A DNA stretch of 64,000 bases, taken from NCBI GenBank assembly GCA_038063415.1, contig JBBTVD010000020.1:11629-75628 (forward strand), read 5' to 3'. A program made the position numbers and the translations under genes. Position 1 is the stretch's first letter. Each line of letters begins with the position of its first letter. This document shows positions 37,372-52,620 of the stretch, one piece after another. The stretch comes from Patescibacteria group bacterium. Lineage in GTDB: Bacteria > Patescibacteriota > Microgenomatia > Levybacterales > UBA12049. The notes below the pieces were generated by a model. The model made no database searches. It saw only the letters and a program-made list of their open reading frames with translations, and was not told where the DNA came from.

Positions 37372-37757
37372 ATTATTTGACTCCACAACAAGTTTTGGCA
37401 ATTCATGATGCTGTCATCAAGCGGACAGGTGGTTCTCACGGCTTGCGTGATGTAGGGCTTTTGGAATCAGCTGTCTACCGTCCACAGGCAAGTTATGATG
37501 GAGGGGATCTCTATCCGACACTTTTTGAAAAGGCTGCTGCTTTGTTCCATTCATTACTTAAAAATCATCCCTTTGTTGACGGCAACAAACGCACATCGTT
37601 GGCTTCTGCTGGATTATTTTTGCAGATAAATAACTTGCAATTAGTGAATACACATGAGAAGGAGCTGGAGTTTGCTCTGAAGGTAGAGAATGCAAGTTTG
37701 ACGTTTGAGGAAATAACTCTTTGGTTTAAGCAAAATACAAAAAAGTTATCTACATAA
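37368..37757 (+). CDS. doc: Doc (death-on-curing) toxin, Fic/Doc family
   Basis: Canonical Doc motif 'HPFVDGNKRT'. 129 aa. Confidence 0.8.
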   Translation: MNYLTPQQVLAIHDAVIKRTGGSHGLRDVGLLESAVYRPQASYDGGDLYPTLFEKAAALFHSLLKNHPFVDGNKRTSLASAGLFLQINNLQLVNTHEKELEFALKVENASLTFEEITLWFKQNTKKLST

Positions 37758-37795: not shown

Positions 37796-38227
37796 TTATA
37801 AAAATTTTGTCATTTCAACAAAGTCCGTGTGGAAATAATGGTTTGGAAGATCAGCTGTTTTTTTGTACCCTTGTGATACATAAAAGGTAACGGATTCCCA
37901 ATCTTTTCCAGTTTGTAAATATATTTTATGCACACCATGTTCTCTGGCAAGCTTTTCTGCTTTTGCGATGAGAACTCTCCCTATACCTTGACTCCTTTTG
38001 CCGTCGGCCACCAGAAAGATGTCGATGTAGGCGACATCTGCATTAATCGTAAAAGTAAGTGATCCGATAATTTCTTTGTCTTCACATACTTCCAGTGTGA
38101 AGTCTTTTTTCTGCCACCTGTCCCAAGGGATTGGTTTTCCATAATGTTTTACATCTTCAGAAGCCCACTCTTTCTTATGGAATGCTTCAAGTTTTTTACT
38201 GCCTTTTTTGGTAATTTTTATATTCAT
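37796..38227 (-). CDS. GNAT family N-acetyltransferase
   Basis: 'VADGKRSQGIGRVLIAKAEKLAREHGVHKIYL' is GNAT motif A. The likely start is the internal Met 'MNIKITKK', not the ORF's first Met at 38362. Confidence 0.6.
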   Translation of the reverse strand: MNIKITKKGSKKLEAFHKKEWASEDVKHYGKPIPWDRWQKKDFTLEVCEDKEIIGSLTFTINADVAYIDIFLVADGKRSQGIGRVLIAKAEKLAREHGVHKIYLQTGKDWESVTFYVSQGYKKTADLPNHYFHTDFVEMTKFL

Positions 38228-38411
38228 CGCTCTCTCGAATACTTTATCCCTAGAATGCCAACATTCATAATAATAACATACATTTGGATCCTGAATTAGA
38301 TCATCAGGAAGAACCCGTTCCACAGGTTGTCTGCATATCGTTATTATACATGAGATAACCAAATACCAGCTTGTCAGTGTCTCAAAAGATTGTTATTATT
38401 GCTAAACATCT

Positions 38412-38990
38412 ATGGCACAGCAAACATTTACCGAGAGTAACTTTAAAACCCAAGTGCTTAGCGCTGAGAATATCTCATTTCGAAGAGTACAAATGGAGGA
38501 TTTGCCACTTCTTCATAGGTGGTTAAATGAACCCCATGTCCATGCGTGGTACGATAAAGATGAAGAGCAAACCTTCGATCATGTTTCCAAAGAGTATCTA
38601 CCAAAAATAACTGGTGAAGAACCAACCAAAGGCTATATTGTCCTGTATGATACGTATCCTGTTGCCTATATACAAAGTTATAGAGCGGGAGACTGGCCAG
38701 AATTTTCTCATATAACAGGCTATGGGGCTTCAGATGCAGGAGTTGATCTTTTTGTTGGAGATCCAAAACTGATGGGTAAAGGTTTCGGGACTATGATGAT
38801 AAAAAAATTTTTACAAGAGATTATTTTTGTCGATCCAGGTATTAAAAAATGTTTCATTGACCCTGAACCCAATAATAAGCGAGCAATTAGAGCCTATGAA
38901 AAAGCAGGATTCAGGTATGTCAAAACAGTACAAATGCCTGACGAGCCAGACCCCTCCTATTTCATGGAGATTAATAAAGAAGAGCAGTAA
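38412..38990 (+). CDS. aminoglycoside 6'-N-acetyltransferase-like GNAT, AAC(6')-Ib family-like
   Basis: Collinear similarity to AAC(6')-Ib as recalled: 'LLHRWLNEPHVHAWY', 'YLPKI', 'AYIQSY', 'KLMGKGFGTMMIKKFLQEIIFVDPGIKKCFIDPEPNNKRAIRAYEKAGFRYVKTVQMPDEPDPSYFM' against 'QLGKGLGTKLVRALVELLFNDPEVTKIQTDPSPSNLRAIRCYEKAGFERQGTVTTPDGPAVYM'. Confidence 0.65.
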   Translation: MAQQTFTESNFKTQVLSAENISFRRVQMEDLPLLHRWLNEPHVHAWYDKDEEQTFDHVSKEYLPKITGEEPTKGYIVLYDTYPVAYIQSYRAGDWPEFSHITGYGASDAGVDLFVGDPKLMGKGFGTMMIKKFLQEIIFVDPGIKKCFIDPEPNNKRAIRAYEKAGFRYVKTVQMPDEPDPSYFMEINKEEQ

Positions 38991-39005
38991 TACATTGTAG
39001 CCGTC

Positions 39006-39440
39006 TTACGCCTCTTTTTTGGTTTGCCATAATATTCTATCTATAGGTCCGTCTTGGGACTTTGACTTTATATGTTCATAAGACTGTTGCAAGATTTTCT
39101 CAAGGATTGGCAGCTCTATATCATGAACCTGCTTGATATACAGACAATACCCGGTAGTCGTATGTTTACCTAGCGTAGCCAGGAGTTCAGAGTAACGTGC
39201 CGTGCCGTCCATCAGGTAAATAGTAATCTTACCTTTCCTTGGATAAAAGCCAATAACAAGACCGTCACCTTCACGTCCGCTATCGTATTTGTAATGGTAG
39301 GTATCAAATCCGATAGTGCCTACATTCCACATCTTTGGTGCCTGGTCGCTTATCCGCTGCATCATTGCAATAAGCACTTGGCTATCTTTTACGGTTTGTC
39401 CGTCTAGTGAAGTAAGGTAGTCTTTTGTCCATGAATCCAT
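39006..39440 (-). CDS. DUF1801 (YdhG-like) domain protein
   Basis: About 140 aa with the typical 'GFYPRKGKITIYL' core. Confidence 0.5.
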   Translation of the reverse strand: MDSWTKDYLTSLDGQTVKDSQVLIAMMQRISDQAPKMWNVGTIGFDTYHYKYDSGREGDGLVIGFYPRKGKITIYLMDGTARYSELLATLGKHTTTGYCLYIKQVHDIELPILEKILQQSYEHIKSKSQDGPIDRILWQTKKEA

Positions 39441-39445
39441 TATAT

Positions 39446-40288
39446 CTACTTTGGTTGACCAACTTCATGATTCAATAAAAAAATTACGCCTTCTGTTTGT
39501 CTAAATGAATTTGGCCAGGAAGTCCTTCGGTCCACACGAGCTCTGATTTCATCACCAGCTTGGGGACTTGGATAGACTAACGAGCCCTTTGGAGATCTCA
39601 ATTCAGTATAGCTACAAACTAATGTCGCTGGGCTTGTTCGTGGACCTAAATCTAGCGGAGTATGATAGTAATCTGACGGTGTTGTATCCTCGACTACGGT
39701 ACCCTGAATGTATCCTACTTTACCAGATGCTGCTAGATTACGATAATAACCCCGAGAATTCGGGGTAGAAATTGGTTGTTCTATACCTAGTACACGAGTA
39801 ATTTTAGCCCTTCTTGATGGTGCATAGATGTTTTTTTCTGGGCTTAATTCGACTTGCAGTGCAACGTTTACTCCCGCCAGTTGTTGCCATGCCGCCGCTT
39901 CCTGAGCATCTTCCATCTTGAAATACAAACGGTAGCTAGGAGAGTGTCGTCGATCATCTCTTACGTTCATCCAGGCAGTTTCTATTCCTCCAAATAGCAT
40001 TTCTCCTAATACTAAAGCTCGTGATTGGTCTGGAGCGTTTAAGCCTGCTGCTTCTGGATTGTATTTAGGAGTATATAGATTTTCGTTCGCCATGGATCCA
40101 AATGGCCAATGCGTTACAACGCTATCGCTATCTTCAACACGTGCCACAAATGTTTCCGATGATAATCCACGTTTTTTAAATTCAGCTGTCATGGAGGGAT
40201 TATAACGAATTTTGAAGAGATGATCAACTATCTGTACTATCGGATGTAATAGGCTCTTGTGAAAGACGTTAGAACTCTTTACGCACAA
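39446..40288 (-). CDS. hypothetical protein; start uncertain (possibly the internal Met 'MTAEFKK')
   Basis: ORF only. The annotated N-terminus overlaps motif-1 copy a. Confidence 0.35.
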   Translation of the reverse strand: MCVKSSNVFHKSLLHPIVQIVDHLFKIRYNPSMTAEFKKRGLSSETFVARVEDSDSVVTHWPFGSMANENLYTPKYNPEAAGLNAPDQSRALVLGEMLFGGIETAWMNVRDDRRHSPSYRLYFKMEDAQEAAAWQQLAGVNVALQVELSPEKNIYAPSRRAKITRVLGIEQPISTPNSRGYYRNLAASGKVGYIQGTVVEDTTPSDYYHTPLDLGPRTSPATLVCSYTELRSPKGSLVYPSPQAGDEIRARVDRRTSWPNSFRQTEGVIFLLNHEVGQPK

Positions 40289-40305
40289 AATGGTGAGTTT
40301 TACGG
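40254..40305. repeat. motif-1 copy a (promoter-like 5' flanking repeat, core 'GTTAGAAyTyTTTACGCACArAAT...')
   Basis: Aligned by eye with the copies at 43054, 47186, 48584 and 51004. Confidence 0.6.
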
Positions 40306-40381
40306 CCCCATATTGAATACTAACTAGATTTTATCCTTTAATGTTTTAATTGTGCTATAAATAATGTAAAATACACTTCTT

Positions 40382-41134
40382 ATGGCACGACCAGAAGGAA
40401 ATCCTATTGAAGGTTTAAGAAAGCTTATTCACGCAGCTTTTATGGAAGTAGTTCGTTCTTTTGCAGGGATTCTTGCATCTCTAAAAGTGCAAAAGAGGAA
40501 ACGCAGGATGTTCGTTATTTCTAGTAGTATAGGATTTGGCATTACCTATATATTATTTCTTCTTACCTATGGAATTCTCCCCCAATTTGATCGAACAAAT
40601 GTAAGACTGCCTGTATTCTGCGAAGGGACTCAAGGCGACCTTACGATACCTTCTCGATTGAGATATGCATTGCCTAATGGAGAGATTGGTATATTGATAA
40701 AGAGTAACGCTGAAACTGCTGTTGTAGCCACTATTGATACAAGTAATCCATCTGATGCAAGCACGGTCTTTGTGGTAAGCAAAGATGGCAATAAAATGCT
40801 GAGAACGATGCATTTTGAGAACGATGTTATTAGTGCCGCTATCGATGAGGGAATTGTTTACATTTTCAATGACAAGTTAGGGTATCTTCTGGACGAACAT
40901 ACTGGCGAGGATGAAAAAACATTTCTTAAAATAGATAACTATGGTGGTCTTTCCCAATCTAATAACCCCATTCTTCCATTTGGTTCTGATGGTTATTGGT
41001 ATATGGAAACGACTGGTATCATCTCAAGTTGGCATATTGATGGGAAAGTCAAATCACGACCTCGTTTGGTGTTTAATGGCATTGCGCGAGGTTGTTTTAT
41101 ATCAGGTGAGACTGGTCAGGTTATTAACCTCTGA
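40382..41134 (+). CDS. membrane protein with a C-terminal soluble domain (paralogue A, 250 aa)
   Basis: TM 'FVISSSIGFGITYILFLLTYGIL'. From 'NGEIGILIKSNAET' onward it is identical to 44454..45266. The N-terminal ~100 aa are only ~65% identical. Confidence 0.5.
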   Translation: MARPEGNPIEGLRKLIHAAFMEVVRSFAGILASLKVQKRKRRMFVISSSIGFGITYILFLLTYGILPQFDRTNVRLPVFCEGTQGDLTIPSRLRYALPNGEIGILIKSNAETAVVATIDTSNPSDASTVFVVSKDGNKMLRTMHFENDVISAAIDEGIVYIFNDKLGYLLDEHTGEDEKTFLKIDNYGGLSQSNNPILPFGSDGYWYMETTGIISSWHIDGKVKSRPRLVFNGIARGCFISGETGQVINL

Positions 41135-41192
41135 GAAGTAATTATGCATTCACTTGAAAAGCCCATAGTTTTATGATAAGATTTACGACTCT

Positions 41193-42548
41193 ATGGCGAG
41201 AGTAGATCATGAATCAGGAAGAACCAGTGTACTCGATCTAAATCGAGCAAAAGCAGTTGGATTCTTGGATTATAACTTGAGAGGACAAAGACATAAAACT
41301 TCAGTCATGCATGATTGGCGTGATTTTTTGGCAAGTGGAAGGACCGGAGGTTATCTTGAATTACCTACAGGCGCAGATAAGACCATTGTAGCTGAATTTG
41401 TGGCACTTGGTCTGAAGACAATTGTTACCTCATCAACAAGAGAGACCTTAGATGAAACGAAAGCAACAATTGAGAGTCATGCAGGGGGGATTGAGGTAAC
41501 TAATTATGATGGCCGCCTAACAGGTGTAAGAGGAAATGTCATCAACACAACATTACCTTCCCTTGAAACATTATCAGATATTCCAGCGGTTGCAAAAGGA
41601 GTAGAATTGATCATTGTTGATGATGATACATTGGGAAGACAACGCCAGGAACTGTGGCGGAGATTTCCAAATGCGCTTTTTGTAGGACTTACCACTACAT
41701 CGGATTTTTCTCAACGTGATCAATTAGAACGCAGAGGGACGGTAGATCCGGGTGAACGTTGGACGGGAATGTTTAAAAATCGTATTCATAGGCTTAGCAG
41801 AGAGGAATTAGTGACAAAAGCTAAAATAGGAGAAAGAATAGCAGCAGCAACTGACCTTCCATCAATAAATAATGTCCTTGATGATATGGTAATAATGGTA
41901 CGCAAACGTAATCAAGCAGGATCAGTTTTAGATTTTTATAGAATGATGGCAGAACTCCTTCCAGACACGCTTCGTCTAGATAAACAAGAAATACTTTTAG
42001 AAGGAATAAGTAATACGAATGTTGATCAACAAAAAATGGGAAAAAAAGCCTTGTTGTTCCTTAATCTGAGATCTGTCTTTACCGTAGTACAACCGCATTT
42101 TTCTGCTGATGAAGAGACAAATGTAGAGATCTTGCAAACAGCATTATTGCAATGTTATGAGAAAATGAAAAATAAAAAAACAACTCCGCAACAAATATTA
42201 AGGGAAGGGGCGACTGCTTCATTGGTAAGAAAGCAAAGAGAGATGCAGGAGGTAATCGTCTATCGGGATACGAGAGAGCCCGATAGGGAAGATGGAAGAC
42301 AAGCTGATCTTATGAGCGCTGTTGAGGAGAGGGCTATGATTGCTTCTGTTTTAGGAGAACTTTCTGAAAGAGAAAGAAAAGTGATAGAATTACGTTTTGG
42401 GATTGGAACTAATGATTGGAGAGAACAAACTCTGGAGGAAGTCGGTCATGTAGTTGGTGTATCAGGGAGAAGAATTAGCGTAATTGAGACAAAAACATTA
42501 AGTAAGTTACGAGACACGAGATTAAGGAAGTTTCTCGATGATTTATGA
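41193..42548 (+). CDS. fusion protein: degenerate SF2-helicase/ResIII-like N-terminal domain plus C-terminal sigma-70 region-4 HTH (451 aa)
   Basis: N-terminal 'GYLELPTGADKTIVAEFVA' resembles a Walker A/motif I with Gly-to-Ala/Asp substitutions. 'ELIIVDDD' sits in the DExH position. C-terminal 'LSERERKVIELRFGIGTNDWREQTLEEVGHVVGVSGRRISVIETKTLSKLR' is a classic sigma-70 region 4. Sigma regions 2 and 3 are not evident. Confidence 0.5.
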   Translation: MARVDHESGRTSVLDLNRAKAVGFLDYNLRGQRHKTSVMHDWRDFLASGRTGGYLELPTGADKTIVAEFVALGLKTIVTSSTRETLDETKATIESHAGGIEVTNYDGRLTGVRGNVINTTLPSLETLSDIPAVAKGVELIIVDDDTLGRQRQELWRRFPNALFVGLTTTSDFSQRDQLERRGTVDPGERWTGMFKNRIHRLSREELVTKAKIGERIAAATDLPSINNVLDDMVIMVRKRNQAGSVLDFYRMMAELLPDTLRLDKQEILLEGISNTNVDQQKMGKKALLFLNLRSVFTVVQPHFSADEETNVEILQTALLQCYEKMKNKKTTPQQILREGATASLVRKQREMQEVIVYRDTREPDREDGRQADLMSAVEERAMIASVLGELSERERKVIELRFGIGTNDWREQTLEEVGHVVGVSGRRISVIETKTLSKLRDTRLRKFLDDL

Positions 42549-42643
42549 TAGTACAAAGGTTTGAGTCTGTCTACCGTGAGCCATATTTAGCTCATATTAT
42601 ATCAAGAAAGTCTTTATACAACTCTACTGATTTCTGCTAAAAT

Positions 42644-42955
42644 ATGGCAATGAGTCAAAAGTTGAGTTTCAAACCATCGGATATTGAAAAAGTATATAAA
42701 GATCAGGCCAAAAGATATTCAGGCTTTGCTAATGATTCTTTCAGTTGGCTTTATCTTGAAAAGCCATGGGGCACAACATCACCGCTATTTTTGAGACCAG
42801 TTGCTGATATTGTAAATGAAACAATAAAAGCGGGTTTTACTATAAAGTCATTAGAAGAACCCTCTGTTCCATTGGCAGCAAAAAAAGCAGACCATGTGAA
42901 TTATTTGAAGTATTCTTTTTGCCCATCACGAATTGCTGTCATTGCCACAAAATAA
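42644..42955 (+). CDS. small hypothetical protein (103 aa), possibly a remnant of a methyltransferase C-terminus
   Basis: ORF with a weak resemblance to the C-terminal beta strands of class I methyltransferases. Low confidence. Confidence 0.25.
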   Translation: MAMSQKLSFKPSDIEKVYKDQAKRYSGFANDSFSWLYLEKPWGTTSPLFLRPVADIVNETIKAGFTIKSLEEPSVPLAAKKADHVNYLKYSFCPSRIAVIATK

Positions 42956-43053
42956 AAATGATGAATCAACCACAAAGCTTGTTGGTGCAACGTAGGGGGC
43001 TAAGGAGTTTTGTTGCAATGATCCAAATGCTCATGAGAAGAGTATATCATTAA

Positions 43054-43100
43054 GTTAGAATTTTTTACGCACAGAATCAGGAGTTTAAATTCCAAGCTTT
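43054..43100. repeat. motif-1 copy b (upstream of the Fic gene)
   Basis: 'GTTAGAATTTTTTACGCACAGAATCAGGAGTTTAAATTCCAAGCTTT'. Confidence 0.6.
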
Positions 43101-43198
43101 ATATGAATTACTTTAGGGATGGTGTTAAATGTTAAAATGGCAATTGTTAAATGTTCGATAGTGTGATATTCTCTTTTTAGCTTCAAATTTAGCTAAAT

Positions 43199-44371
43199 AT
43201 GTTAAATATTGAAAATAAAATGAGTAAGTATTCATACGACAAATTATTACTAGTACAGCCCAAATTTAACTCTACTTTGACAGATTTAATTATTGAGTTA
43301 GATTATTTAAGGAAAAAGCCTTTAGGTGGTAGCACTCCACCTCGGATATTTTTCCAATTAAAAAGTATATTTCATACCTTAGAAAGTATTGGGTCTGCAC
43401 GTATTGAAGGAAATCATACGACTATTGCTGAGTTTATTGAAACGAAGTTAGAGAAACATAAGAGTAAAGACGAAAAAATAAATGAAATTCAAAATATAGA
43501 AGCAGCAATGGATTTTATTGATAATTCTATAGATGCAACACCTATAAATGACGCTTTCATACGTGAGTTACATAAGAGAGTTGTGGGTGGTTTATCTCCT
43601 CATGAAGAAGGAGATACTCATCCTGGTGAATATCGAAAAGGAAATATTAAAATTGCTGGTACACAACATGTACCCCCAGAATCTCTGCAAGTCATTGATT
43701 ATATGCAGGAGTTAAATGGATTTATTAATAATGACGATCCACATAAATATGATCTGCTTAAAATTGCATTAGCACATCATCGTTTTGTATGGATTCACCC
43801 CTTTGGAAATGGTAATGGTCGTACTGTTAGATTACTTACCTACGCACAACTTATAAAGTCAGGTTTTAATGTTCACGTAGGAAGAATTATTAACCCTACT
43901 GCAATTTTTTGTAGCGATCGAGAGAAATATTATTCGTATTTATCGAAAGCAGATGCAGGGGATAGTACTGGCCTCTTAAATTGGAGTGAGTATGTGTTAT
44001 CTGGATTGAAACAGGAGATAGAAAAAATTGACCATTTGTTAGATTATAGTTATTTATCTGAAAAAATATTACTTCCTGCCATTAGTTTCTCACTTGATAG
44101 AAAAGTTATTACTCAGCTTGAGGCGGATATTTTAAAAATTGCGGTTAAAAAACAATTATTTCAAGCATCAGACTTAAAAGAACTATTTCCCAACACAATT
44201 CCGGCTCAAGTTTCTCGTTATATCAGTCGTTTGAAAGAAAAAAAGATGATTGCTCCGGAAAATAAAAATAGTAGAAAGTACCTTATAGATTTTGGTAATA
44301 ATTACTTACTTCGGGGTGTTATTAAAATGTTAGATCAACATGGTTTTTTACCTCTTAAAGGAGAGTCTTAA
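43199..44371 (+). CDS. Fic family protein, class II (N-terminal inhibitory helix), with a C-terminal winged-helix-like domain (390 aa)
   Basis: Fic motif 'HPFGNGNGRTVRLL', in which Asn occupies the usual D/E position. An inhibitory-helix motif (S/T)xxxE(G/N) is present as 'SARIEGN'. Confidence 0.75.
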   Translation: MLNIENKMSKYSYDKLLLVQPKFNSTLTDLIIELDYLRKKPLGGSTPPRIFFQLKSIFHTLESIGSARIEGNHTTIAEFIETKLEKHKSKDEKINEIQNIEAAMDFIDNSIDATPINDAFIRELHKRVVGGLSPHEEGDTHPGEYRKGNIKIAGTQHVPPESLQVIDYMQELNGFINNDDPHKYDLLKIALAHHRFVWIHPFGNGNGRTVRLLTYAQLIKSGFNVHVGRIINPTAIFCSDREKYYSYLSKADAGDSTGLLNWSEYVLSGLKQEIEKIDHLLDYSYLSEKILLPAISFSLDRKVITQLEADILKIAVKKQLFQASDLKELFPNTIPAQVSRYISRLKEKKMIAPENKNSRKYLIDFGNNYLLRGVIKMLDQHGFLPLKGES

Positions 44372-44374
44372 AAG

Positions 44375-44428
44375 GTTCGAGTCCGTCCGTCGTAAAGCTA
44401 GAGTTCGAGGCTGAAATGTTGGGCAGGA
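44375..44428. repeat. motif-2 copy A (3' flanking repeat 'GGTTCGAGTCCGTCCGyCGTrAGGCTAGAGTTCGAGGCTrAAT...')
   Basis: Starts 4 nt after the Fic stop codon. Aligned with the copies at 48506 and 52507. Confidence 0.6.
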
Positions 44429-44453
44429 CAAACGTCTGCTATACTTATTAAGG

Positions 44454-45266
44454 ATGACGCCTTTACAAATAGGACTTGGTACCAGTATATTTATCAATCT
44501 AATAATTGGGCTACTCTATATCGCTATCCTACAAGAGCCAGGTTCAGCATATTATTTTTTTCTCTTTCTTACTTTCTTCAGCGGTTCCTTTCTTGCAGGA
44601 ATTCTTGCATCTCTAAAAGCGCAAAAAAGGAAACGCAGGGAGTTCGTTGTTTCTAGTAGTATAGGGTTTGGCATTACCTGTATGTTATTTCTTATTACCT
44701 ATGGAGTTCTTCCCCAATTTGATCGAACAAATGTTAGATTACCTGTATTCTGCGAAGGAAATCAAGGCGACCTTAAGATACCTTTTCAATTGAGATACAC
44801 TTTACCCAATGGAGAGATTGGTATATTGATAAAGAGTAACGCTGAAACTGCTGTTGTAGCCACTATTGATACAAGTAATCCATCTGATGCAAGCACGGTC
44901 TTTGTGGTAAGCAAAGATGGCAATAAAATGCTGAGAACGATGCATTTTGAGAACGATGTTATTAGTGCCGCTATCGATGAGGGAATTGTTTACATTTTCA
45001 ATGACAAGTTAGGGTATCTTCTGGACGAACATACTGGCGAGGATGAAAAAACATTTCTTAAAATAGATAACTATGGTGGTCTTTCCCAATCTAATAACCC
45101 CATTCTTCCATTTGGTTCTGATGGTTATTGGTATATGGAAACGACTGGTATCATCTCAAGTTGGCATATTGATGGGAAAGTCAAATCACGACCTCGTTTG
45201 GTGTTTAATGGCATTGCGCGAGGTTGTTTTATATCAGGTGAGACTGGTCAGGTTATTAACCTCTGA
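44454..45266 (+). CDS. membrane protein paralogue B (270 aa); N-terminus diverged from 40382..41134, remainder identical
   Basis: See 40382..41134. Confidence 0.5.
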   Translation: MTPLQIGLGTSIFINLIIGLLYIAILQEPGSAYYFFLFLTFFSGSFLAGILASLKAQKRKRREFVVSSSIGFGITCMLFLITYGVLPQFDRTNVRLPVFCEGNQGDLKIPFQLRYTLPNGEIGILIKSNAETAVVATIDTSNPSDASTVFVVSKDGNKMLRTMHFENDVISAAIDEGIVYIFNDKLGYLLDEHTGEDEKTFLKIDNYGGLSQSNNPILPFGSDGYWYMETTGIISSWHIDGKVKSRPRLVFNGIARGCFISGETGQVINL

Positions 45267-45324
45267 GAAGTAATTATGCATTCACTTGAAAAGCCCATAG
45301 TTTTATGATAAGATTTACGACTCT

Positions 45325-46680
45325 ATGGCGAGAGTAGATCATGAATCAGGAAGAACCAGTGTACTCGATCTAAATCGAGCAAAAGCAGTTGGATTCTTGG
45401 ATTATAACTTGAGAGGACAAAGACATAAAACTTCAGTCATGCATGATTGGCGTGATTTTTTGGCAAGTGGAAGGACCGGAGGTTATCTTGAATTACCTAC
45501 AGGCGCAGATAAGACCATTGTAGCTGAATTTGTGGCACTTGGTCTGAAGACAATTGTTACCTCATCAACAAGAGAGACCTTAGATGAAACGAAAGCAACA
45601 ATTGAGAGTCATGCAGGGGGGATTGAGGTAACTAATTATGATGGCCGCCTAACAGGTGTAAGAGGAAATGTCATCAACACAACATTACCTTCCCTTGAAA
45701 CATTATCAGATATTCCAGCGGTTGCAAAAGGAGTAGAATTGATCATTGTTGATGATGATACATTGGGAAGACAACGCCAGGAACTGTGGCGGAGATTTCC
45801 AAATGCGCTTTTTGTAGGACTTACCACTACATCGGATTTTTCTCAACGTGATCAATTAGAACGCAGAGGGACGGTAGATCCGGGTGAACGTTGGACGGGA
45901 ATGTTTAAAAATCGTATTCATAGGCTTAGCAGAGAGGAATTAGTGACAAAAGCTAAAATAGGAGAAAGAATAGCAGCAGCAACTGACCTTCCATCAATAA
46001 ATAATGTCCTTGATGATATGGTAATAATGGTACGCAAACGTAATCAAGCAGGATCAGTTTTAGATTTTTATAGAATGATGGCAGAACTCCTTCCAGACAC
46101 GCTTCGTCTAGATAAACAAGAAATACTTTTAGAAGGAATAAGTAATACGAATGTTGATCAACAAAAAATGGGAAAAAAAGCCTTGTTGTTCCTTAATCTG
46201 AGATCTGTCTTTACCGTAGTACAACCGCATTTTTCTGCTGATGAAGAGACAAATGTAGAGATCTTGCAAACAGCATTATTGCAATGTTATGAGAAAATGA
46301 AAAATAAAAAAACAACTCCGCAACAAATATTAAGGGAAGGGGCGACTGCTTCATTGGTAAGAAAGCAAAGAGAGATGCAGGAGGTAATCGTCTATCGGGA
46401 TACGAGAGAGCCCGATAGGGAAGATGGAAGACAAGCTGATCTTATGAGCGCTGTTGAGGAGAGGGCTATGATTGCTTCTGTTTTAGGAGAACTTTCTGAA
46501 AGAGAAAGAAAAGTGATAGAATTACGTTTTGGGATTGGAACTAATGATTGGAGAGAACAAACTCTGGAGGAAGTCGGTCATGTAGTTGGTGTATCAGGGA
46601 GAAGAATTAGCGTAATTGAGACAAAAACATTAAGTAAGTTACGAGACACGAGATTAAGGAAGTTTCTCGATGATTTATGA
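45325..46680 (+). CDS. helicase-like/sigma-70 region-4 fusion protein, second identical copy
   Basis: Identical 451-aa translation to 41193..42548. Confidence 0.5.
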   Translation: MARVDHESGRTSVLDLNRAKAVGFLDYNLRGQRHKTSVMHDWRDFLASGRTGGYLELPTGADKTIVAEFVALGLKTIVTSSTRETLDETKATIESHAGGIEVTNYDGRLTGVRGNVINTTLPSLETLSDIPAVAKGVELIIVDDDTLGRQRQELWRRFPNALFVGLTTTSDFSQRDQLERRGTVDPGERWTGMFKNRIHRLSREELVTKAKIGERIAAATDLPSINNVLDDMVIMVRKRNQAGSVLDFYRMMAELLPDTLRLDKQEILLEGISNTNVDQQKMGKKALLFLNLRSVFTVVQPHFSADEETNVEILQTALLQCYEKMKNKKTTPQQILREGATASLVRKQREMQEVIVYRDTREPDREDGRQADLMSAVEERAMIASVLGELSERERKVIELRFGIGTNDWREQTLEEVGHVVGVSGRRISVIETKTLSKLRDTRLRKFLDDL

Positions 46681-46775
46681 TAGTACAAAGGTTTGAGTCT
46701 GTCTACCGTGAGCCATATTTAGCTCATATTATATCAAGAAAGTCTTTATACAACTCTACTGATTTCTGCTAAAAT

Positions 46776-47087
46776 ATGGCAATGAGTCAAAAGTTGAGTT
46801 TCAAACCATCGGATATTGAAAAAGTATATAAAGATCAGGCCAAAAGATATTCAGGCTTTGCTAATGATTCTTTCAGTTGGCTTTATCTTGAAAAGCCATG
46901 GGGCACAACATCACCGCTATTTTTGAGACCAGTTGCTGATATTGTAAATGAAACAATAAAAGCGGGTTTTACTATAAAGTCATTAGAAGAACCCTCTGTT
47001 CCATTGGCAGCAAAAAAAGCAGACCATGTGAATTATTTGAAGTATTCTTTTTGCCCATCACGAATTGCTGTCATTGCCACAAAATAA
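46776..47087 (+). CDS. small hypothetical protein, second identical copy
   Basis: Identical to 42644..42955. Confidence 0.25.
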   Translation: MAMSQKLSFKPSDIEKVYKDQAKRYSGFANDSFSWLYLEKPWGTTSPLFLRPVADIVNETIKAGFTIKSLEEPSVPLAAKKADHVNYLKYSFCPSRIAVIATK

Positions 47088-47185
47088 AAATGATGAATCA
47101 ACCACAAAGCTTGTTGGTGCAACGTAGGGGGCTAAGGAGTTTTGTTGCAATGATCCAAATGCTCATGAGAAGAGTATATCATTAA

Positions 47186-47232
47186 GTTAGAATTTTTTAC
47201 GCACAGAATCAGGAGTTTAAATTCCAAGCTTT
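47186..47232. repeat. motif-1 copy c (duplicate of copy b inside unit 2)
   Basis: Offset 4132 from copy b. Confidence 0.6.
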
Positions 47233-47330
47233 ATATGAATTACTTTAGGGATGGTGTTAAATGTTAAAATGGCAATTGTTAAATGTTCGATAGTGTGATA
47301 TTCTCTTTTTAGCTTCAAATTTAGCTAAAT

Positions 47331-48503
47331 ATGTTAAATATTGAAAATAAAATGAGTAAGTATTCATACGACAAATTATTACTAGTACAGCCCAAATTTA
47401 ACTCTACTTTGACAGATTTAATTATTGAGTTAGATTATTTAAGGAAAAAGCCTTTAGGTGGTAGCACTCCACCTCGGATATTTTTCCAATTAAAAAGTAT
47501 ATTTCATACCTTAGAAAGTATTGGGTCTGCACGTATTGAAGGAAATCATACGACTATTGCTGAGTTTATTGAAACGAAGTTAGAGAAACATAAGAGTAAA
47601 GACGAAAAAATAAATGAAATTCAAAATATAGAAGCAGCAATGGATTTTATTGATAATTCTATAGATGCAACACCTATAAATGACGCTTTCATACGTGAGT
47701 TACATAAGAGAGTTGTGGGTGGTTTATCTCCTCATGAAGAAGGAGATACTCATCCTGGTGAATATCGAAAAGGAAATATTAAAATTGCTGGTACACAACA
47801 TGTACCCCCAGAATCTCTGCAAGTCATTGATTATATGCAGGAGTTAAATGGATTTATTAATAATGACGATCCACATAAATATGATCTGCTTAAAATTGCA
47901 TTAGCACATCATCGTTTTGTATGGATTCACCCCTTTGGAAATGGTAATGGTCGTACTGTTAGATTACTTACCTACGCACAACTTATAAAGTCAGGTTTTA
48001 ATGTTCACGTAGGAAGAATTATTAACCCTACTGCAATTTTTTGTAGCGATCGAGAGAAATATTATTCGTATTTATCGAAAGCAGATGCAGGGGATAGTAC
48101 TGGCCTCTTAAATTGGAGTGAGTATGTGTTATCTGGATTGAAACAGGAGATAGAAAAAATTGACCATTTGTTAGATTATAGTTATTTATCTGAAAAAATA
48201 TTACTTCCTGCCATTAGTTTCTCACTTGATAGAAAAGTTATTACTCAGCTTGAGGCGGATATTTTAAAAATTGCGGTTAAAAAACAATTATTTCAAGCAT
48301 CAGACTTAAAAGAACTATTTCCCAACACAATTCCGGCTCAAGTTTCTCGTTATATCAGTCGTTTGAAAGAAAAAAAGATGATTGCTCCGGAAAATAAAAA
48401 TAGTAGAAAGTACCTTATAGATTTTGGTAATAATTACTTACTTCGGGGTGTTATTAAAATGTTAGATCAACATGGGTTTTTGCCTCTTAAAGGTGAGTCC
48501 TAA
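47331..48503 (+). CDS. Fic family protein, class II, second copy
   Basis: Identical 390-aa translation to 43199..44371. A few silent or near-terminal nucleotide differences occur in the last ~30 bp. Confidence 0.75.
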   Translation: MLNIENKMSKYSYDKLLLVQPKFNSTLTDLIIELDYLRKKPLGGSTPPRIFFQLKSIFHTLESIGSARIEGNHTTIAEFIETKLEKHKSKDEKINEIQNIEAAMDFIDNSIDATPINDAFIRELHKRVVGGLSPHEEGDTHPGEYRKGNIKIAGTQHVPPESLQVIDYMQELNGFINNDDPHKYDLLKIALAHHRFVWIHPFGNGNGRTVRLLTYAQLIKSGFNVHVGRIINPTAIFCSDREKYYSYLSKADAGDSTGLLNWSEYVLSGLKQEIEKIDHLLDYSYLSEKILLPAISFSLDRKVITQLEADILKIAVKKQLFQASDLKELFPNTIPAQVSRYISRLKEKKMIAPENKNSRKYLIDFGNNYLLRGVIKMLDQHGFLPLKGES

Positions 48504-48505
48504 AA

Positions 48506-48560
48506 GGTTCGATTCTATCTGCCGTGAGGCTAGAATTCGAGGATAAATTATTGGGCAAGG
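48506..48560. repeat. motif-2 copy B
   Basis: 'GGTTCGATTCTATCTGCCGTGAGGCTAGAATTCGAGGATAAATTATTGGGCAAGG'. Confidence 0.6.
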
Positions 48561-48583
48561 GTACGCGCGCGGCGTTAGAACTC

Positions 48584-48620
48584 TTTACGCACAAAATTGT
48601 GAGTTTTATATTCCAGCTTT
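48584..48620. repeat. motif-1 copy d (best sigma70 match: -35 TTTACG, 17-bp spacer, -10 TATATT), not followed by a gene
   Basis: 'GTTAGAACTCTTTACGCACAAAATTGTGAGTTTTATATTCCAGCTTT' contains the palindrome CACAA-AA-TTGTG. Confidence 0.55.
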
Positions 48621-48700
48621 TATTCAAATCATTCAAGAAGACATGTACTTCAGCTTGTGTAAGGCATATTCATATACGGTGCAATACGAAGCTAATAAGC

Positions 48701-49069
48701 CTATTTAATTACGCGGACTTGTCTGTGTTGATCGAGTTCATCTGCGTTAGTGATAGCCCATTGCTGTAATCCTTGTAAAGGTTCAACGAGACTAATTCCG
48801 AGCTTTGTTAGTGAATAGGAAACCTTTGTAACGTTCCCTTTTATGACTTTACGTTCAATAAAGCCATCTGTTTCGAGCTTGCGTAACGTTTGCGTCAACA
48901 TTTTTTGAGAAATACATTCAATTTTTCGTTTGAGTTCCCCAAAATAATAGGGCTGTTCCGAAAGTGCTGCTAGAACCAAAATAGTCCACTTATCTGCAAT
49001 TTTCATAAGTGCATAGCGGGTAATGCATACTGCGGAAAATATATTAAATTTAGAAGTTGGTTTCATCAC
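48701..49069 (-). CDS. HxlR-family winged-helix transcriptional regulator
   Basis: 'CISQKMLTQTLRKLETDGFIERKVIKGNVTKVSYSLTKLG' is the typical HxlR core. It is divergent from a reductase gene. Confidence 0.65.
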   Translation of the reverse strand: MMKPTSKFNIFSAVCITRYALMKIADKWTILVLAALSEQPYYFGELKRKIECISQKMLTQTLRKLETDGFIERKVIKGNVTKVSYSLTKLGISLVEPLQGLQQWAITNADELDQHRQVRVIK

Positions 49070-49148
49070 TAGTTACCTTTTAGTGCCTTCTTGAAAAAAA
49101 GAAGGTAGTCACTTATAGTAACTATATGATAACACAAGGAGACTGTAT

Positions 49149-49814
49149 ATGAAAATAGCAATTATTGGAGCGGGTAATATCGGTGGATATCTCGCAACAC
49201 AGTTAAGTAAAGTTGGCCATGGAGTCACTATCTGTTTTACACGAAATGAAGAAAAGCTTAAAGAACGAGCTAGTAAAATTGGCAATGGTGTTCAGGGCTC
49301 TTCTGTACGTGAAGCGGTAAAAAAGAGTGAGCTAGTGATTTTATCTACCAGGTGGGAAGATATTGATGCCGCCTTGTTACAAGCGAAAGATTTATCAGAC
49401 AAAATAGTCATAGATGCAACAAATCAATATGGAGCAACAGGTCTTATAGATATTGGTACAAGCGTCGCAGTATTTAACCAAGCTCGTATGCCCGGAGTAA
49501 AACTCGTCAGGACTTTTAATATGTTCTTTGCAACGTATCTGTCCGAAGTTGGTCGTGGTCAACATCGACCGGTCGCTATGTTTTTTGCTTCCGAAGATAA
49601 ATACGCAAAAGAAGTTGCCACCCAGATTATAGCTGACATAGGTTTTGAACCAGTATATTTAGGTGGTTTGGATGTTGCTAAGTTTATTGAGATGCCGAAT
49701 GGAATGCTTGTCGGAAAAATATATCGACCCAAACAGGCACAAGCAATTGCTAAAGCTGTACAACAAGGTGATCTTGCTTTGGCTTCTCAACTGGCTAAAA
49801 ATGTAAGCGAGTAG
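49149..49814 (+). CDS. NADP-binding oxidoreductase, F420-dependent NADP reductase (Npd)-like family
   Basis: Rossmann motif 'MKIAIIGAGNIGGYLATQL'. About 220 aa, typical of PF03807-type proteins. Confidence 0.55.
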   Translation: MKIAIIGAGNIGGYLATQLSKVGHGVTICFTRNEEKLKERASKIGNGVQGSSVREAVKKSELVILSTRWEDIDAALLQAKDLSDKIVIDATNQYGATGLIDIGTSVAVFNQARMPGVKLVRTFNMFFATYLSEVGRGQHRPVAMFFASEDKYAKEVATQIIADIGFEPVYLGGLDVAKFIEMPNGMLVGKIYRPKQAQAIAKAVQQGDLALASQLAKNVSE

Positions 49815-49897
49815 CCGCATTTTCTTTTAGGAAAAGGAGATCTTGTCCGCAGTTCGTAATTAGTGGTAGTAATTTTTCGGTCGTATATAGATACTTT

Positions 49898-50845
49898 TTA
49901 GAAACTATACCTGCCATTTACTGCGAGTTTAGCACCGTTAACAATTGCGGTTGTTCCATCATATTTATATACGAATGTACGTCCTGCTGAATCAGCTGCC
50001 ACAGAAAGAGCAAAAGAGCTTGAGGTATTTTGCCCAGAGCCCGTTTCAAACTGATCTTTTGCTGCAACCGGAAGATTAATTTGCGTATATCCTGACCCTC
50101 CGGAGTTAGCATCATATGTGAAATCAACCCAATAGAACATTACGTTCCCTAAAATGAAAAACGTTGCTTTGTTAGTTGTTGGATTATTAGTAAAAGCACC
50201 TCCACCCGAAGTATAAGTTGGTGTGAAATTAAAGGTTCCAGGATAGCCTTGTGGACTTGCTTCATAAGAATAGTAGGGATTTGTTATTGCCGAATTGGCA
50301 AGAGAATAATCATTATTAGCAAAAAGAGTTACAGTTGTATCGGTTGAATAGCTACTTGAGAGTACAACACCATAATAAGTTGTAGAATTATTAGTAAGTT
50401 TCACACGTGTACCTTTAGTAAAGATTGCTGTTCGGTCAGTACCTGATATTTTGAAGCTATTTGCAGAAACATATGTCCATGTATCATTCGCTGTAGTCCA
50501 ACCATCTTGATTAGCTAAAGACAATGTTGCTCCAGAACTACTTCTGGATATAGTCAAACCATTGCCCGCATTAACATCTTTGAGCCAAGTTACTTGAGTT
50601 AAACCGGTATCGCAGCTTGCCCCCGGTGACACTAGTGTGACGATTCCGCGAGAGTCTTCGCATGCATTAATCAGACTACTATCACCCCAACTTCCAAAAC
50701 TAGCATGTACCAAACGAACAAAGTAGGGTCCAAAAAGTGTAAACGTAATTCCGAAGAGAATCACAAGAAGAGGAATACCAAAAGAGAAAATAAGACGGGT
50801 TCGCTTAACGATATGAAGGTATGATGTAATCTTAAGACGGTTCAT
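49898..50845 (-). CDS. membrane-anchored Ser/Thr/Gly/Asn-rich secreted hypothetical protein
   Basis: TM 'LIFSFGIPLLVILFGITFTLFG'. Low-complexity beta-rich body. Confidence 0.4.
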   Translation of the reverse strand: MNRLKITSYLHIVKRTRLIFSFGIPLLVILFGITFTLFGPYFVRLVHASFGSWGDSSLINACEDSRGIVTLVSPGASCDTGLTQVTWLKDVNAGNGLTISRSSSGATLSLANQDGWTTANDTWTYVSANSFKISGTDRTAIFTKGTRVKLTNNSTTYYGVVLSSSYSTDTTVTLFANNDYSLANSAITNPYYSYEASPQGYPGTFNFTPTYTSGGGAFTNNPTTNKATFFILGNVMFYWVDFTYDANSGGSGYTQINLPVAAKDQFETGSGQNTSSSFALSVAADSAGRTFVYKYDGTTAIVNGAKLAVNGRYSF

Positions 50846-51003
50846 ATTATATTTATTAACTTAATTCAATCTAATAATAAATGTAACTGTAAGTCAATAG
50901 GAAAAATAAATTTGTACATTGTGATAAGGACGTTCGATTCCATTTATCCGTTAGAATATTTTAGCAATTTTTGAGGCTAAAAATGAAATAAAACCGTGGC
51001 AGG

Positions 51004-51065
51004 TTCTCGTGAAGGACATTAGAATTTTTACGCACAAAATCCTGATTTTTAGATTTCCAGCTTTT
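51004..51065. repeat. motif-1 copy e (upstream of the 453-aa gene; -35 TTTACG, 17-bp spacer, -10 TAGATT)
   Basis: 'CTCGTGAAGGACATTAGAATTTTTACGCACAAAATCCTGATTTTTAGATTTCCAGCTTTT'. Confidence 0.6.
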
Positions 51066-51099: not shown

Positions 51100-52461
51100 T
51101 TGAAATATATGAGTGAGATACCTCGTCCTACAGACGTAACCCCTACAGACTATCAGAGGGAGATAGTATCATTATTAGGATCAGATGGTTCTGAACAGAA
51201 TAAATATGAGCTAACTCTTGTGAACAGGCCAGATTGGCTTCCTCCTGAGAGTGGGGTATATTTTTTTCAGGATTCAGGAAAATGTAGCCAAATTCATACT
51301 ATACAGAGCGAGGATAATATAGAATATCAGGTTTCTTCTAATGCTGATCCGACCTTTCCTGGTTTCCAGGTTGGTGTGCCATGGTCAATTGGCAGAAGAT
51401 TAGCACCCAACGATCGTATATTTCTCAATAGCTCTTCATTCGTTGTCGTGCATACACCTGACGTTGAACCTATTCTCTATGATATTTCTCCTGAAGAAGT
51501 AGCTGTACCACCTCAAAGGAGTGAAAGAACATTCTCTTCTAAAGATATGATGTCTGGAATCCTTTCCAGAGAGATTTTTACTCAGACTTCACTGCCTGGT
51601 GTTGTGCGAGATCCACTAGTTGTAGCTGCAATGATTGCTGAGGAAAAAGAACGATCCAAGAGGGAGAGTAGGGGCGCGAGACCAGAAGCTCAATTTACTG
51701 CCATAGAGCCAGCGGTGGTCACTGAAGTAGATCTCAATGCTCCAAGGACAAAAATACTTAGTATCACCAAAGACTTCGATGGAAGTGCTATGGGGTTCCA
51801 TATATATATAATCACTGTTGCTGGTGAGAATAAAAGAGAGCTTAGAGTCCCTAATACTGGTGTATTTATACACATTGATGAGGATACGTCTCTTGTACGC
51901 AGACTTCAAACTTCATCATTATCACCACACATCTCAACCGAAGATGCTCCTACAGAATATATTGTTATGTTAGGTAAAGAACTCTCTGATGGTGAAGATT
52001 GGATGCGTGAGTGGCAGTTAAAGAATGAGCTTGCTTCTTCTGCAAGTGAACAATCTGGTACCTCATCAGCGCTTTTAGTTCAAAAGAGTGTAACACCAAA
52101 TGATCCGGCTCATCCTCAAGAAGCAAGAGTTGTTCCAGCGCAACTATCCTTTGGAAGCATTAGCTTTACTGGTCAATTTCTTGCAAGACATATAGGTGGC
52201 TCATATAGACAAATGATTTTAGAGGCACTTTTTGAAGCTAGCATGCCAGGGTATGAATCGACCCTATATAAGGCAAAGGACATACTGGAAGAGGTTATAA
52301 GAAACGCTTTACAAGGTGAAGCTGAAAGAATTTTTTCTGATGAGCAGAGTCCGCAGCCGGTAGCTAGAGGGTTTACATCAGTAATTGCAGAAGTAAAGAA
52401 AATTGTTGAAGGAAATAGAAGGCAAAAAGCTTGGGATGATCAGGTTGGAATGTATAGATAG
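51100..52461 (+). CDS. hypothetical protein (453 aa), bracketed by motif-1 and motif-2 like the Fic genes
   Basis: ORF only. Confidence 0.4.
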   Translation: MKYMSEIPRPTDVTPTDYQREIVSLLGSDGSEQNKYELTLVNRPDWLPPESGVYFFQDSGKCSQIHTIQSEDNIEYQVSSNADPTFPGFQVGVPWSIGRRLAPNDRIFLNSSSFVVVHTPDVEPILYDISPEEVAVPPQRSERTFSSKDMMSGILSREIFTQTSLPGVVRDPLVVAAMIAEEKERSKRESRGARPEAQFTAIEPAVVTEVDLNAPRTKILSITKDFDGSAMGFHIYIITVAGENKRELRVPNTGVFIHIDEDTSLVRRLQTSSLSPHISTEDAPTEYIVMLGKELSDGEDWMREWQLKNELASSASEQSGTSSALLVQKSVTPNDPAHPQEARVVPAQLSFGSISFTGQFLARHIGGSYRQMILEALFEASMPGYESTLYKAKDILEEVIRNALQGEAERIFSDEQSPQPVARGFTSVIAEVKKIVEGNRRQKAWDDQVGMYR

Positions 52462-52506
52462 ATACGTTTTCTTCCATTGTTTTTCGATGTTAGAAAGGGG
52501 TTCGAG

Positions 52507-52548
52507 TCCGTCCGCCGTGAGGCTAGAGTGCGAGGCTAAATTTATCAG
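52507..52548. repeat. motif-2 copy C, directly abutting the 3' end of tRNA-Trp
   Basis: 'GGGGTTCGAGTCCGTCCGCCGTGAGGCTAGAGTGCGAGGCTAAATTTATCAG'. Confidence 0.6.
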
Positions 52549-52620
52549 CAGGGGCGCACAGATTCGAACTGTGAAAAGCAGTTTTGGAGACTGCTGTGAT
52601 AGCCATTTCACCACACCCCT
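52549..52620 (-). tRNA. tRNA-Trp (anticodon CCA)
   Basis: Minus-strand fold: acceptor AGGGGTG/CGCCCCT (one G.U pair), D arm GTGA-AATGGCTA-TCAC, anticodon arm GCAGT-CTCCAAA-ACTGC, 4-nt variable loop, T arm CACAG-TTCGAAT-CTGTG, discriminator G. No CCA is encoded. Confidence 0.8.

Follow-up and report, generated by a model that had tools for sequence, protein, structure and literature searches.

A tRNA-Trp-anchored array of accessory-gene cassettes bounded by a composite repeat in a groundwater Patescibacteria genome

A cassette array and its composite boundary repeat

A 64,000-nucleotide (nt) stretch of contig JBBTVD010000020.1, from a Patescibacteria metagenome-assembled genome of Hainich groundwater, was analysed as a whole and is referred to here as the window. 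Between positions 40251 and 52555, composite repeats of ~120-170 nt part the DNA into cassettes of accessory genes, and the resulting array ends against an intact tRNA-Trp (CCA) gene on the minus strand (52549-52620), whose 3' end supplies the core of the repeat. Profile searches found no site elsewhere in the window. The initial annotation had described five copies of a promoter-like element, motif-1 (m1), lying 5' of unrelated accessory genes in a cassette-like manner. The shared cis element is indeed present, but it is the right arm of the composite rather than the whole of it; the left arm, D3, had been overlooked.

The consensus was defined from 29 non-redundant copies aligned together with their flanks. 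In order, the composite comprises a left arm, the core CAGCAGGGGC, a variable 12-nt segment (segment C), the IRR box GTTAGAAC, and TTTTTACGCACAAAAT..TTTTATATTCC. The left arm is made up of the IRL box (GGTTCGAG/GGTTCTAAC), of which the IRR box is an inverted repeat, together with AGGCTA repeats or a hairpin. Two forms of the IRL box occur, the tRNA-like AAGGTTCGAGTCYGTC and the type-2 CAGAGGTTCTAACGTACCTTTGCGGGTAAGG, and a 34-37-nt block containing two AGGCTA repeats and an A/T-stem hairpin (TTTTAG..CTAAAA) is optional. Inverted GGTTC/GAAC boxes thus surround the core, 9-27 nt to its left and 12-18 nt to its right. Beyond the IRR box the right arm continues as TTTTTACGCACAAAAT, 3 nt and GAGTTTTATATTCC; an alternative right arm, m1', reads CTGAGCAACTTTGTTGGAACCTATT and lacks TTTACGCAC. 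A 24-mer, GTTAGAACTTTTTACGCACAAAAT, is identical at 20-24 of its 24 positions in the 29 copies, and at 20-23 of them in copies that the search pattern had not selected. The composite repeats are 83-100% identical across genomes whose core genes are merely 65-77% identical at the DNA level. One divergent sub-family of sites (L029, 1856-5466; related loci are given by L numbers throughout) has the same 24-mer with a different core, AAGTCCAGACT, and its docking site lies off the contig.

The left arm was recovered by a repeat finder as a second repeat family, D3 (GGTTCGAGTCCGTCCGCCGTGAGGCTAGAGTTCGAGGCTAAATTATTGGGCAGG), at 44374, 48506 and 52499; positions 42550, 46682 and 50930 hold versions of it that are weak or degenerate. 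The Fic genes' stop codons are followed at once by D3, and that of a gene first read as 453 amino acids (aa) long is followed by it after 37 nt. D3 is contiguous with m1 copy d (48506-48622), and a degenerate D3 is contiguous with copy e (50928-51065); the true unit is therefore the composite, with m1 as its right-hand part.

The five-fold recurrence of m1 is real. The pattern GTTAGAAYTYTTTACGCACARAAT matched at 40268, 43054, 47186 and 48574 and in none of 100 shuffles, so that no chance matches are expected, and the fifth copy, e, from 51018, reads ATTAGAA-TTTTTACGCACAAAAT, with a 1-nt deletion and a G>A change. Across the whole 64 kb an nhmmer profile recovered all five copies at E = 1e-15 to 1e-20 and no sixth, the next match having E = 0.09. 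The starts first assigned to copies a (40254) and e (51004) mark the beginning of a conserved 14-nt 5' flank, and that of copy d (48584) falls on TTTACG; these offsets of 10-14 nt are immaterial. Copies b and c are identical because both lie inside a 4.1-kb tandem repeat, which leaves four independent copies of m1. The element is not mere duplication debris, as scans of sequence collections recovered true extended copies on more than 20 further contigs. The gene order also stands as first described: copy a precedes a transmembrane (TM) gene at 40382, copies b and c precede the Fic genes, and copy e precedes the 453-aa open reading frame (ORF), for which the ATG at 51109 is the more probable start, giving 450 aa and matching the gene length in other assemblies. 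Copy d, followed by a convergent HxlR gene, had been taken for the orphan of a lost unit. It actually heads a cassette of the HxlR gene, an oxidoreductase gene and a gene for a 315-aa protein, bounded at its far end by the degenerate left arm (50928-51003). The CACAA-AA-TTGTG palindrome reported in copy d is present, but in that copy only, and is conserved in none of the 29 copies.

At its left end the array begins with copy a (40251-40309, plus strand), which holds a core remnant, AGG (40251-40253), a 14-nt segment C (40254-40267), GTTAGAAC (40268-40275) and TTTACG (40278-40283). Upstream of this leftmost junction we found no left arm; the DNA there is unrelated and includes the beginning of a divergent 248-aa gene. 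The cargo of cassette 1 (40382-42955, plus strand) encodes a 250-aa TM protein, a 451-aa P-loop-like/sigma70-r4 fusion and a 103-aa ORF, with a weak IRL-like box (42550-42581) directly past the sigma-r4 stop codon. Copy b (43054-43100, plus strand) shows similarity only from GTTAGAA onwards, without core or segment C, and an extended -10 block (AGTATATCA, minus strand) is joined straight to its box. Cassette 2 (cargo 43199-44371, plus strand) encodes a 390-aa Fic protein and is closed by left arm D3-1 (44372-44427, plus strand), with the IRL box GGTTCGAGTCCGTCC, which resembles the tRNA T-loop and acceptor, a GCTAGAG..GAGGCT repeat and the core GGGCAGG. Composite similarity stops exactly past CAGG, and TGCTATACT and the ATG of a second TM gene, TM2, come next.

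A second copy of cassettes 1 and 2 then follows (44454-48503, plus strand), consisting of TM2, which has a different N-terminus, the sigma-r4 fusion, the 103-aa ORF, m1 copy c (47186-47232) and the Fic gene. The tandem repeat (40451-44425 against 44584-48557) is 98.9% identical overall, with 87-91% identity over the first ~300 nt and 100% over most of its length; positions 44426-44583, which encode the N-terminus of the second TM protein, are unique to the window and are missing from other assemblies. In short-read assemblies of the same population the 4.1-kb unit is single or the contig is broken there, so that it is either collapsed or polymorphic. The 451-aa protein (41193-42548 and 45325-46680) combines a P-loop/DExD-like N-terminal part (LELPTGADKT, IIVDD) with a C-terminal sigma-70 region 4 helix-turn-helix, and had family matches for the sigma part only.

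A complete composite spans 48504-48622 (plus strand). Its left arm, D3-2 (48506-48559), is followed by the core GGGCAAGG, a GC-rich segment C (48560-48573) and m1 copy d, with GTTAGAAC at 48574, TTTACG at 48584 and TATATT at 48607. Cassette 3 (cargo 48701-50845) encodes an HxlR regulator (minus strand), an F420/NADP oxidoreductase (plus) and a 315-aa secreted-type protein (minus). The next composite (50928-51065, plus strand) has a degenerate left arm (ACGTTCGATTCC) with hairpin B, ATTTTAGC..GCTAAAAT, at 50957-50985, the core GGCAGG at 50998-51003, segment C at 51004-51017 and m1 copy e, with ATTAGAA at 51018, TTTACG at 51027 and TAGATT at 51050. Cassette 4 (cargo 51109-52461, plus strand) encodes the 450-aa protein, to which no function was assigned; a TGATATAAT of its own stands at 51092, 8 nt ahead of the ATG. 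Left arm D3-3 and its core (52497-52555, plus strand) close the array on the tRNA side. Further accessory-type genes stand to the left of the array, namely a MazE-Doc toxin-antitoxin pair, two GNAT acetyltransferase genes and a DUF1801 gene (37132-37757 and 37796-39440); no sites could be recognised there, and the genes may stem from older cassettes that have decayed.

Related arrays, tRNA-Trp docking and breakpoints

At least 20 further contigs of related Patescibacteria from groundwater and soil carry co-oriented arrays of the same kind. A scan of a genome collection returned 22 loci, of which 3 were true and 19 were chance singletons, as the information content of the pattern predicts; all 19 loci from a metagenome collection were true, and the two scans together gave 22 true loci. 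Profiles of the centre and left arm located 2-6 sites per locus, always co-oriented within a locus and 0.7-3 kb apart. The cargo varies by genome and includes Fic proteins, GNAT acetyltransferases, HAD and alpha/beta hydrolases, a PIN toxin, HSP20, PNPOx, PadR, TrmB and HxlR regulators, a pentapeptide protein with a zeta-like kinase, SRPBCC/AHSA1 proteins and many ORFs without a family. A Fic cassette recurs among different neighbours in L021, L025 and L033 (74-79% identity), as does the pentapeptide and kinase cassette in L024 and L038 (83%). The cargo proteins of the window have no homologue in the other loci, save for a distant Fic. Other assemblies of the same population are colinear with the window, apart from the collapsed 4.1-kb repeat; the single-copy unit in L045 may itself be an assembly collapse and was therefore not counted as evidence of mobility. 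Two loci, L021 (DASQPC010000077.1) and L011 (CAZDOJ010000002.1), carry the public labels Methylomirabilota and Gammaproteobacteria. The labels are probably wrong for these contigs, since they agree with the Patescibacteria genome studied here in tRNA cluster, in flanking genes and in RplA (65% identical).

The arrays dock on tRNA-Trp. In the window, CAG (52546-52548) is the tRNA trailer and CAGGGGC (52549-52555) is the tRNA's final 7 nt in reverse complement; the core of the composite, which consists of the terminal CCCCTG of tRNA-Trp plus its CTG trailer, recurs in direct orientation at the internal junctions. The T-loop of the tRNA occupies the position that the IRR box holds in composites. 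At every array end that lies on a contig, namely in the window, L021, L027, L037, L054 and L056, the final left arm and core abut the opposite-strand tRNA-Trp, which is intact in all six. Two of these loci, L054 and L056, were obtained without the motif, through homologues of the neighbouring M50 protease. A relative at a similar distance, L055, has a gene 12 nt after tRNA-Trp, with neither arm nor array, and is not an isogenic empty site.

Two further observations concern the tRNA itself. At L021 (2056-2120; tRNA-Trp 1993-2068), the left arm opens with 19 nt that perfectly repeat, in inverted form, the genome's own tRNA-Trp 3' end (GGGTTCGATTCCCTCTACC), 37 nt away; the corresponding match is 13/17 in the window and was not seen in other genomes. 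Gene conversion and a recent event are both possibilities for its origin. Separately, rpmG and tRNA-Trp lie ~36 kb from secE-nusG-rplK-rplA (window 14709-20145). We considered and rejected the idea that the array had split tRNA-Trp from secE: the order glmS-secE-nusG-rplKA is ancestral in relatives (L049-L052), and so the separation does not stem from the array.

Breakpoints of similarity cluster at the core. In the cassette shared by L024 and L038, homology on the left begins exactly at GCAGGGGC, with unrelated DNA before it (L024 4040, AGTAG/GCAGGGGC, the slash marking the break). On its right, the IRL variant goes with the shared upstream cargo and both the 12-nt segment C and the downstream cargo differ, which places the exchange point between the IRL box and segment C. 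Further breaks are seen at window copy a (GTAAT/AGGCTC), at window 44427 (GGGCAGG/ACAAAC, followed by the sequence missing from other assemblies) and at L054 13935 (TTGCAGG/CACTGAGC). At least four independent breakpoints, together with the six tRNA junctions, lie at the core, 14-18 nt upstream of the GTTAGAA box. Since tRNA-Trp remains intact in the six arrays, exchange would not take place at the equivalent of GTTAGAAC, which is the T-loop, and would instead occur at or beyond the last bases of the tRNA.

Together, these features lead us to favour, with moderate confidence, a reading in which the composites are att-like sites of small cassettes that lack an integrase and build up at the 3' end of tRNA-Trp by means of a trans-acting recombinase. 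A circular cassette would carry one complete composite, which would recombine at its core with the identical tRNA-Trp end or with a resident site. After insertion the right arm (m1) would lie 5' and the left arm 3' of the cargo, the tRNA would remain intact, and repeated insertions would yield a co-oriented array. At the chromosomal site the T-arm of the tRNA would supply the right-hand box, an arrangement that would suit a recombinase reading paired half-sites, and the near-invariant 24-mer and the AGGCTA repeats may be arm-type or accessory binding sites. The 3' half of m1, with TTTACG, 17 nt and TATATT, may, secondarily, also drive transcription into the cassette.

Several observations weigh against this reading. 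Searches with Pfam, PHROGs and precomputed Pfam annotations revealed no tyrosine, serine or other candidate recombinase in the window or in ~30 related loci; Pfam and PHROGs covered all sizeable ORFs, with one batch of 38 ORFs represented by the best 25 of 50 families, where a weak integrase match could be hidden. The recombinase would therefore have to act in trans, encoded elsewhere in the genome or on another element. The transposase-type genes that were seen, an insertion-sequence-type rve gene (9825-10847) and a DDE_3 gene downstream of the motif in L001, are not linked to the sites; the former lies on the minus strand 30 kb from the array and encodes rve integrase core and helix-turn-helix domains. 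Assemblies, the only material consulted, contained no circular form, excision junction or strict pair of empty and filled alleles. The idea of a phage or plasmid attP was rejected, as two scans of viral contigs, made with m1 and with the left arm in turn, had no hits. Some sites are also anomalous. The window cores are degenerate (GGCAGGTT, GGCAAGGG, TAGGCT). In L056 the left arm stands at tRNA-Trp with no second site, so the arm could be a native feature downstream of the tRNA. In L057 (12866-12900) the interval from rpmG to tRNA-Trp holds a solo right arm, GCAGGGGCAGAGTAACTACGTTAGAACTTTTTAC, on the tRNA strand and so in reversed orientation, which suggests a local inversion or a second insertion site.

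Not all breakpoints lie at the core, which also counts against this account. The site at L028 2858-2916 is cut just before GTTAGAAC and kept to GGAC, with the box lost; window copies b and c (43041-43060 for b) break at the GTTAGAA boundary, where the -10 block is fused to the box; and the Fic cassette of L021 breaks inside the AGGCTA block. We take these off-core junctions to be secondary deletions, and the crossover assignment is provisional. For L028 and copies b and c, the cuts may be deletions between inverted boxes or may mark a second cleavage position.

Alternative explanations

A purely regulatory role seems unlikely to us, and the promoter reading of m1 in the initial annotation has little support as a main function. 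The composite would then comprise a sigma-70-type promoter, an operator formed by the invariant 24-mer and, in its type-2 form, a divergent promoter region, and its repetition would reflect a regulon. The hexamers are where they had been described: TTTACG is followed after 17 nt by TATATT in copy d, TAGATT in copy e and TACGGC in copy a. Exactly this spacing, with a TATAT-type hexamer, is found in ~18 of the 29 copies, and ~70% of copies have a co-oriented gene 60-260 nt downstream. In addition, leftward TGnTATAAT or TATACT boxes lie 6-7 nt from the ATG of divergent genes before type-2 left arms (L001, L024, L025, L027, L037, L038 and L056), and the invariance of the 24-mer would fit a protein-binding site. 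However, a promoter consensus scan scored copy d alone among the m1 copies, with the region as a whole at chance level (46 sites against 42.5 ± 6.5), and the -10 boxes of copies a and b/c are poor. Some 7 of 25 copies (~30%), among them copies in L024, L028, L029, L037 and window d, retain TTTTATATTCC despite facing a convergent gene, one that either Pfam or its length supports. Extended -10 boxes (TGnTATAAT or TATACT) also belong to the cargo genes themselves, 6-8 nt ahead of the ATG, for example in the window (44437 and 51092) and in genes divergent from type-2 left arms. A regulon would, moreover, leave unexplained the confinement of co-oriented arrays to a single locus, their anchoring at tRNA-Trp, the breakpoints at the core and the existence of m1' without TTTACGCAC.

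Firing into the cassette is thus possible as a secondary role, given the copies that face convergent genes and the -10 boxes that cargo genes own; it would not be required for conservation of the site, and m1' dispenses with it. Extended -10 boxes 6-8 nt upstream of the ATG, with no Shine-Dalgarno sequence, were seen at the gene starts 40192, 44454, 51109 and 37071 and at the type-2 arms of the seven loci listed above, a pattern that suggests widespread leaderless transcripts in the lineage.

A comparably low probability attaches to explanations that need no dedicated recombinase. The composite might be a duplicated native module past tRNA-Trp, such as a terminator plus promoter, with arrays arising by homologous recombination after uptake or by tandem duplication through the ~150-nt repeats, or it might be a selfish repeat resembling a miniature inverted-repeat transposable element (MITE), a comparison that the initial annotation had drawn for m1. 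The left arm that stands at tRNA-Trp in L056 without an array would suit a native module, as would the failure of the recombinase searches; the 4.1-kb tandem duplication in the window spans two sites, and gene conversion could maintain high repeat identity. Against this, homologous recombination predicts neither breakpoints within 3-4 nt of the core nor a core identical to the tRNA end, and would have to accommodate repeats that are 83-100% identical across genomes with core genes at 65-77%. MITEs are dispersed, in either orientation, and carry terminal inverted repeats and target duplications. The copies here are instead clustered at one locus in one orientation, have neither terminal inverted repeats nor target duplications, and keep their inverted boxes internal, with conserved sequence for 12-45 nt past them; the MITE version was rejected. 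Terminal inverted repeats at the level of whole cassettes were rejected as well, as the right-arm box matches its own left-arm box only in the cassette of L024 and L038.

We are more doubtful still that the composites are integron attC sites, in which the IRL box would be R'', GTTAGAA would be R', the integrase would be encoded elsewhere and crossover would occur between G and TTAGAA. The attC box consensus is RYYYAAC/GTTRRRY, and the type-2 composites present TTCTAAC...GTTAGAA ~85-100 nt apart, each box matching 6 of 7 positions. The length of the centre varies with the presence or absence of the 34-37-nt block, like a variable terminal structure; long imperfect IRL/IRR stems were predicted in L001, L025, L037 and L038; the cargo is typical of integron cassettes; and window copies b/c and L028 2858 break at GTTAGAA. 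Yet D3-type left arms (GGTTCGAGTCC) have no AAC box, and IRL/IRR duplex energies are no better than those of shuffled sequences (z from -2.9 to +1.5), so we claim no attC-like fold. Recombination at attC would not explain the ~45 nt conserved past the R'-like box in the 29 copies. A crossover at the box would destroy the T-loop at the tRNA end, whereas tRNA-Trp is intact in six of six arrays, and most breakpoints fall at the core, 14-18 nt upstream of the box. No intI (PF00589) was found in the window or the related loci. Clusters of attC sites that have no integron integrase (CALINs) are commonly found without a nearby intI (PMC4889954), an absence that would be compatible here only if the sites were attC.

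A structured RNA, whether cis-regulatory or for processing, such as tRNA-like punctuation between cassette transcripts, is very improbable and was rejected: the left arm does mimic the T-loop and 3' acceptor strand of tRNA, down to the perfect 19-nt inverted copy of L021, and hairpin B shows a compensatory change in L029 (TTTAGA/TCTAAA vs ATTAGA/TCTAAT), but composites d and e fold at shuffle level (z-scores -0.02 and +0.92), Rfam, at the gathering threshold and at E<=1 alike, matched true tRNAs only, variation in segment C is uncompensated in the invariant TTTTTACG, and ARAGORN finds no tRNA-like gene at any site. A tRNA pseudogene was rejected too, although the reverse complement of m1 is about tRNA-sized, as ARAGORN and Rfam gave nothing and no cloverleaf could be drawn.

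Relation to known gene-capture systems

In organisation, the arrays appear nearest to integron cassette arrays without an integrase, the CALINs (PMC4889954). Both have short, co-oriented cassettes, mostly of one or two genes with unrelated accessory functions, and an imperfectly palindromic site of ~100 nt with a variable centre and, here in type-2 composites, inverted GTT..AAC-type boxes; in both, sites are homogeneous within a lineage and no integrase lies nearby. The type-2 pair TTCTAAC/GTTAGAA is reminiscent of inverse-core and core sites. They differ in that the array described here docks on the 3' end of a tRNA rather than on an attI beside intI, that its breakpoints lie at the central core rather than at the R' box, and that a further 45 nt are conserved past the box. 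Many left arms here also lack the AAC box, and cassettes have promoters of their own and may face either way. Genomes of the ~1 Mb class, to which this Patescibacteria host belongs, have been reported to lack complete integrons (PMC4889954).

In mechanism, the closest parallel would be tRNA-targeted integrative elements and their integrase-less tandem derivatives, the cis-mobilizable elements (CIMEs; PMC5704250). There, too, the core is a tRNA 3' end repeated at every junction, elements stand in tandem at one tRNA, and att sites persist without integration genes, to be mobilised in trans. The units here measure 1.4-2.8 kb and hold one to three cargo genes, with no remnant of an integrase, excisionase or transfer gene in ~30 loci; the site, with its two structured arms, is far longer than a simple tRNA-derived direct repeat; and the pattern is kept across genera, so that the units look like designed cassettes rather than products of random decay. 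The tycheposons and tRNA islands of Prochlorococcus (10.1101/2020.12.28.424599) likewise belong to a streamlined genome in which flexible genes, with niche and defence cargo, collect in islands seeded by specific tRNAs, through repeated site-specific integration beside partial tRNA sequence. The defining feature of a tycheposon is a tyrosine (or serine) recombinase that faces inward, often accompanied by a replication module (10.1101/2020.12.28.424599). In the loci studied here we found no recombinase, primase or helicase module, and the site is a composite with two arms rather than a ~40-nt tRNA fragment. The absence of a detected recombinase or replication module, the small and uniform cassettes and the long two-armed site set these arrays apart from both CIMEs and tycheposons. 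What they resemble most is site-specific cassette accretion at a tRNA with an integron-like organisation, a mechanism proposed here from comparative anatomy only.

Two further systems share single features with the arrays. The pdif modules of Acinetobacter plasmids are accessory modules between 28-bp XerC/XerD sites in alternating orientation, probably moved by a housekeeping recombinase encoded elsewhere. They are likewise discrete sets of accessory genes between short conserved recombination sites; the sites here exceed 100 nt, lie in direct orientation, have no recognisable dif-like 11-6-11 layout and are tRNA-anchored. The Correia elements of Neisseria, which are promoter-bearing MITEs, resemble the composite in being ~150-nt intergenic repeats with inverted boxes and promoter-like hexamers, and differ in that the repeat described here keeps to one tRNA-anchored array, with its copies always co-oriented and its inverted boxes internal.

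How accessory genes are acquired and exchanged in the Candidate Phyla Radiation (CPR)/Patescibacteria is poorly understood; their genomes are very small and, to our knowledge, few mobile elements have been recognised and no integrons described in them. More tentatively than for cassette accretion as such, we suggest that the arrays might represent an integron-analogous capture platform of a Levybacteria-like CPR lineage, with the 3' end of tRNA-Trp as its dock, a ~150-nt two-armed site, a CAGCAGGGGC core between inverted GGTTC/GAAC boxes, cassettes with promoters of their own and a recombinase acting in trans. Were the composite only regulatory, it would still be a strongly conserved operator/promoter module common to accessory genes across genera. 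If cassette accretion is correct, the boundary site would be searchable, allowing the flexible gene pool of toxins, Fic proteins, acetyltransferases and hydrolases to be catalogued, and would offer a recombination substrate with which to find the recombinase. It would then add a third design of modular gene capture in streamlined genomes, beside integrons and the tRNA-seeded islands exemplified by tycheposons.

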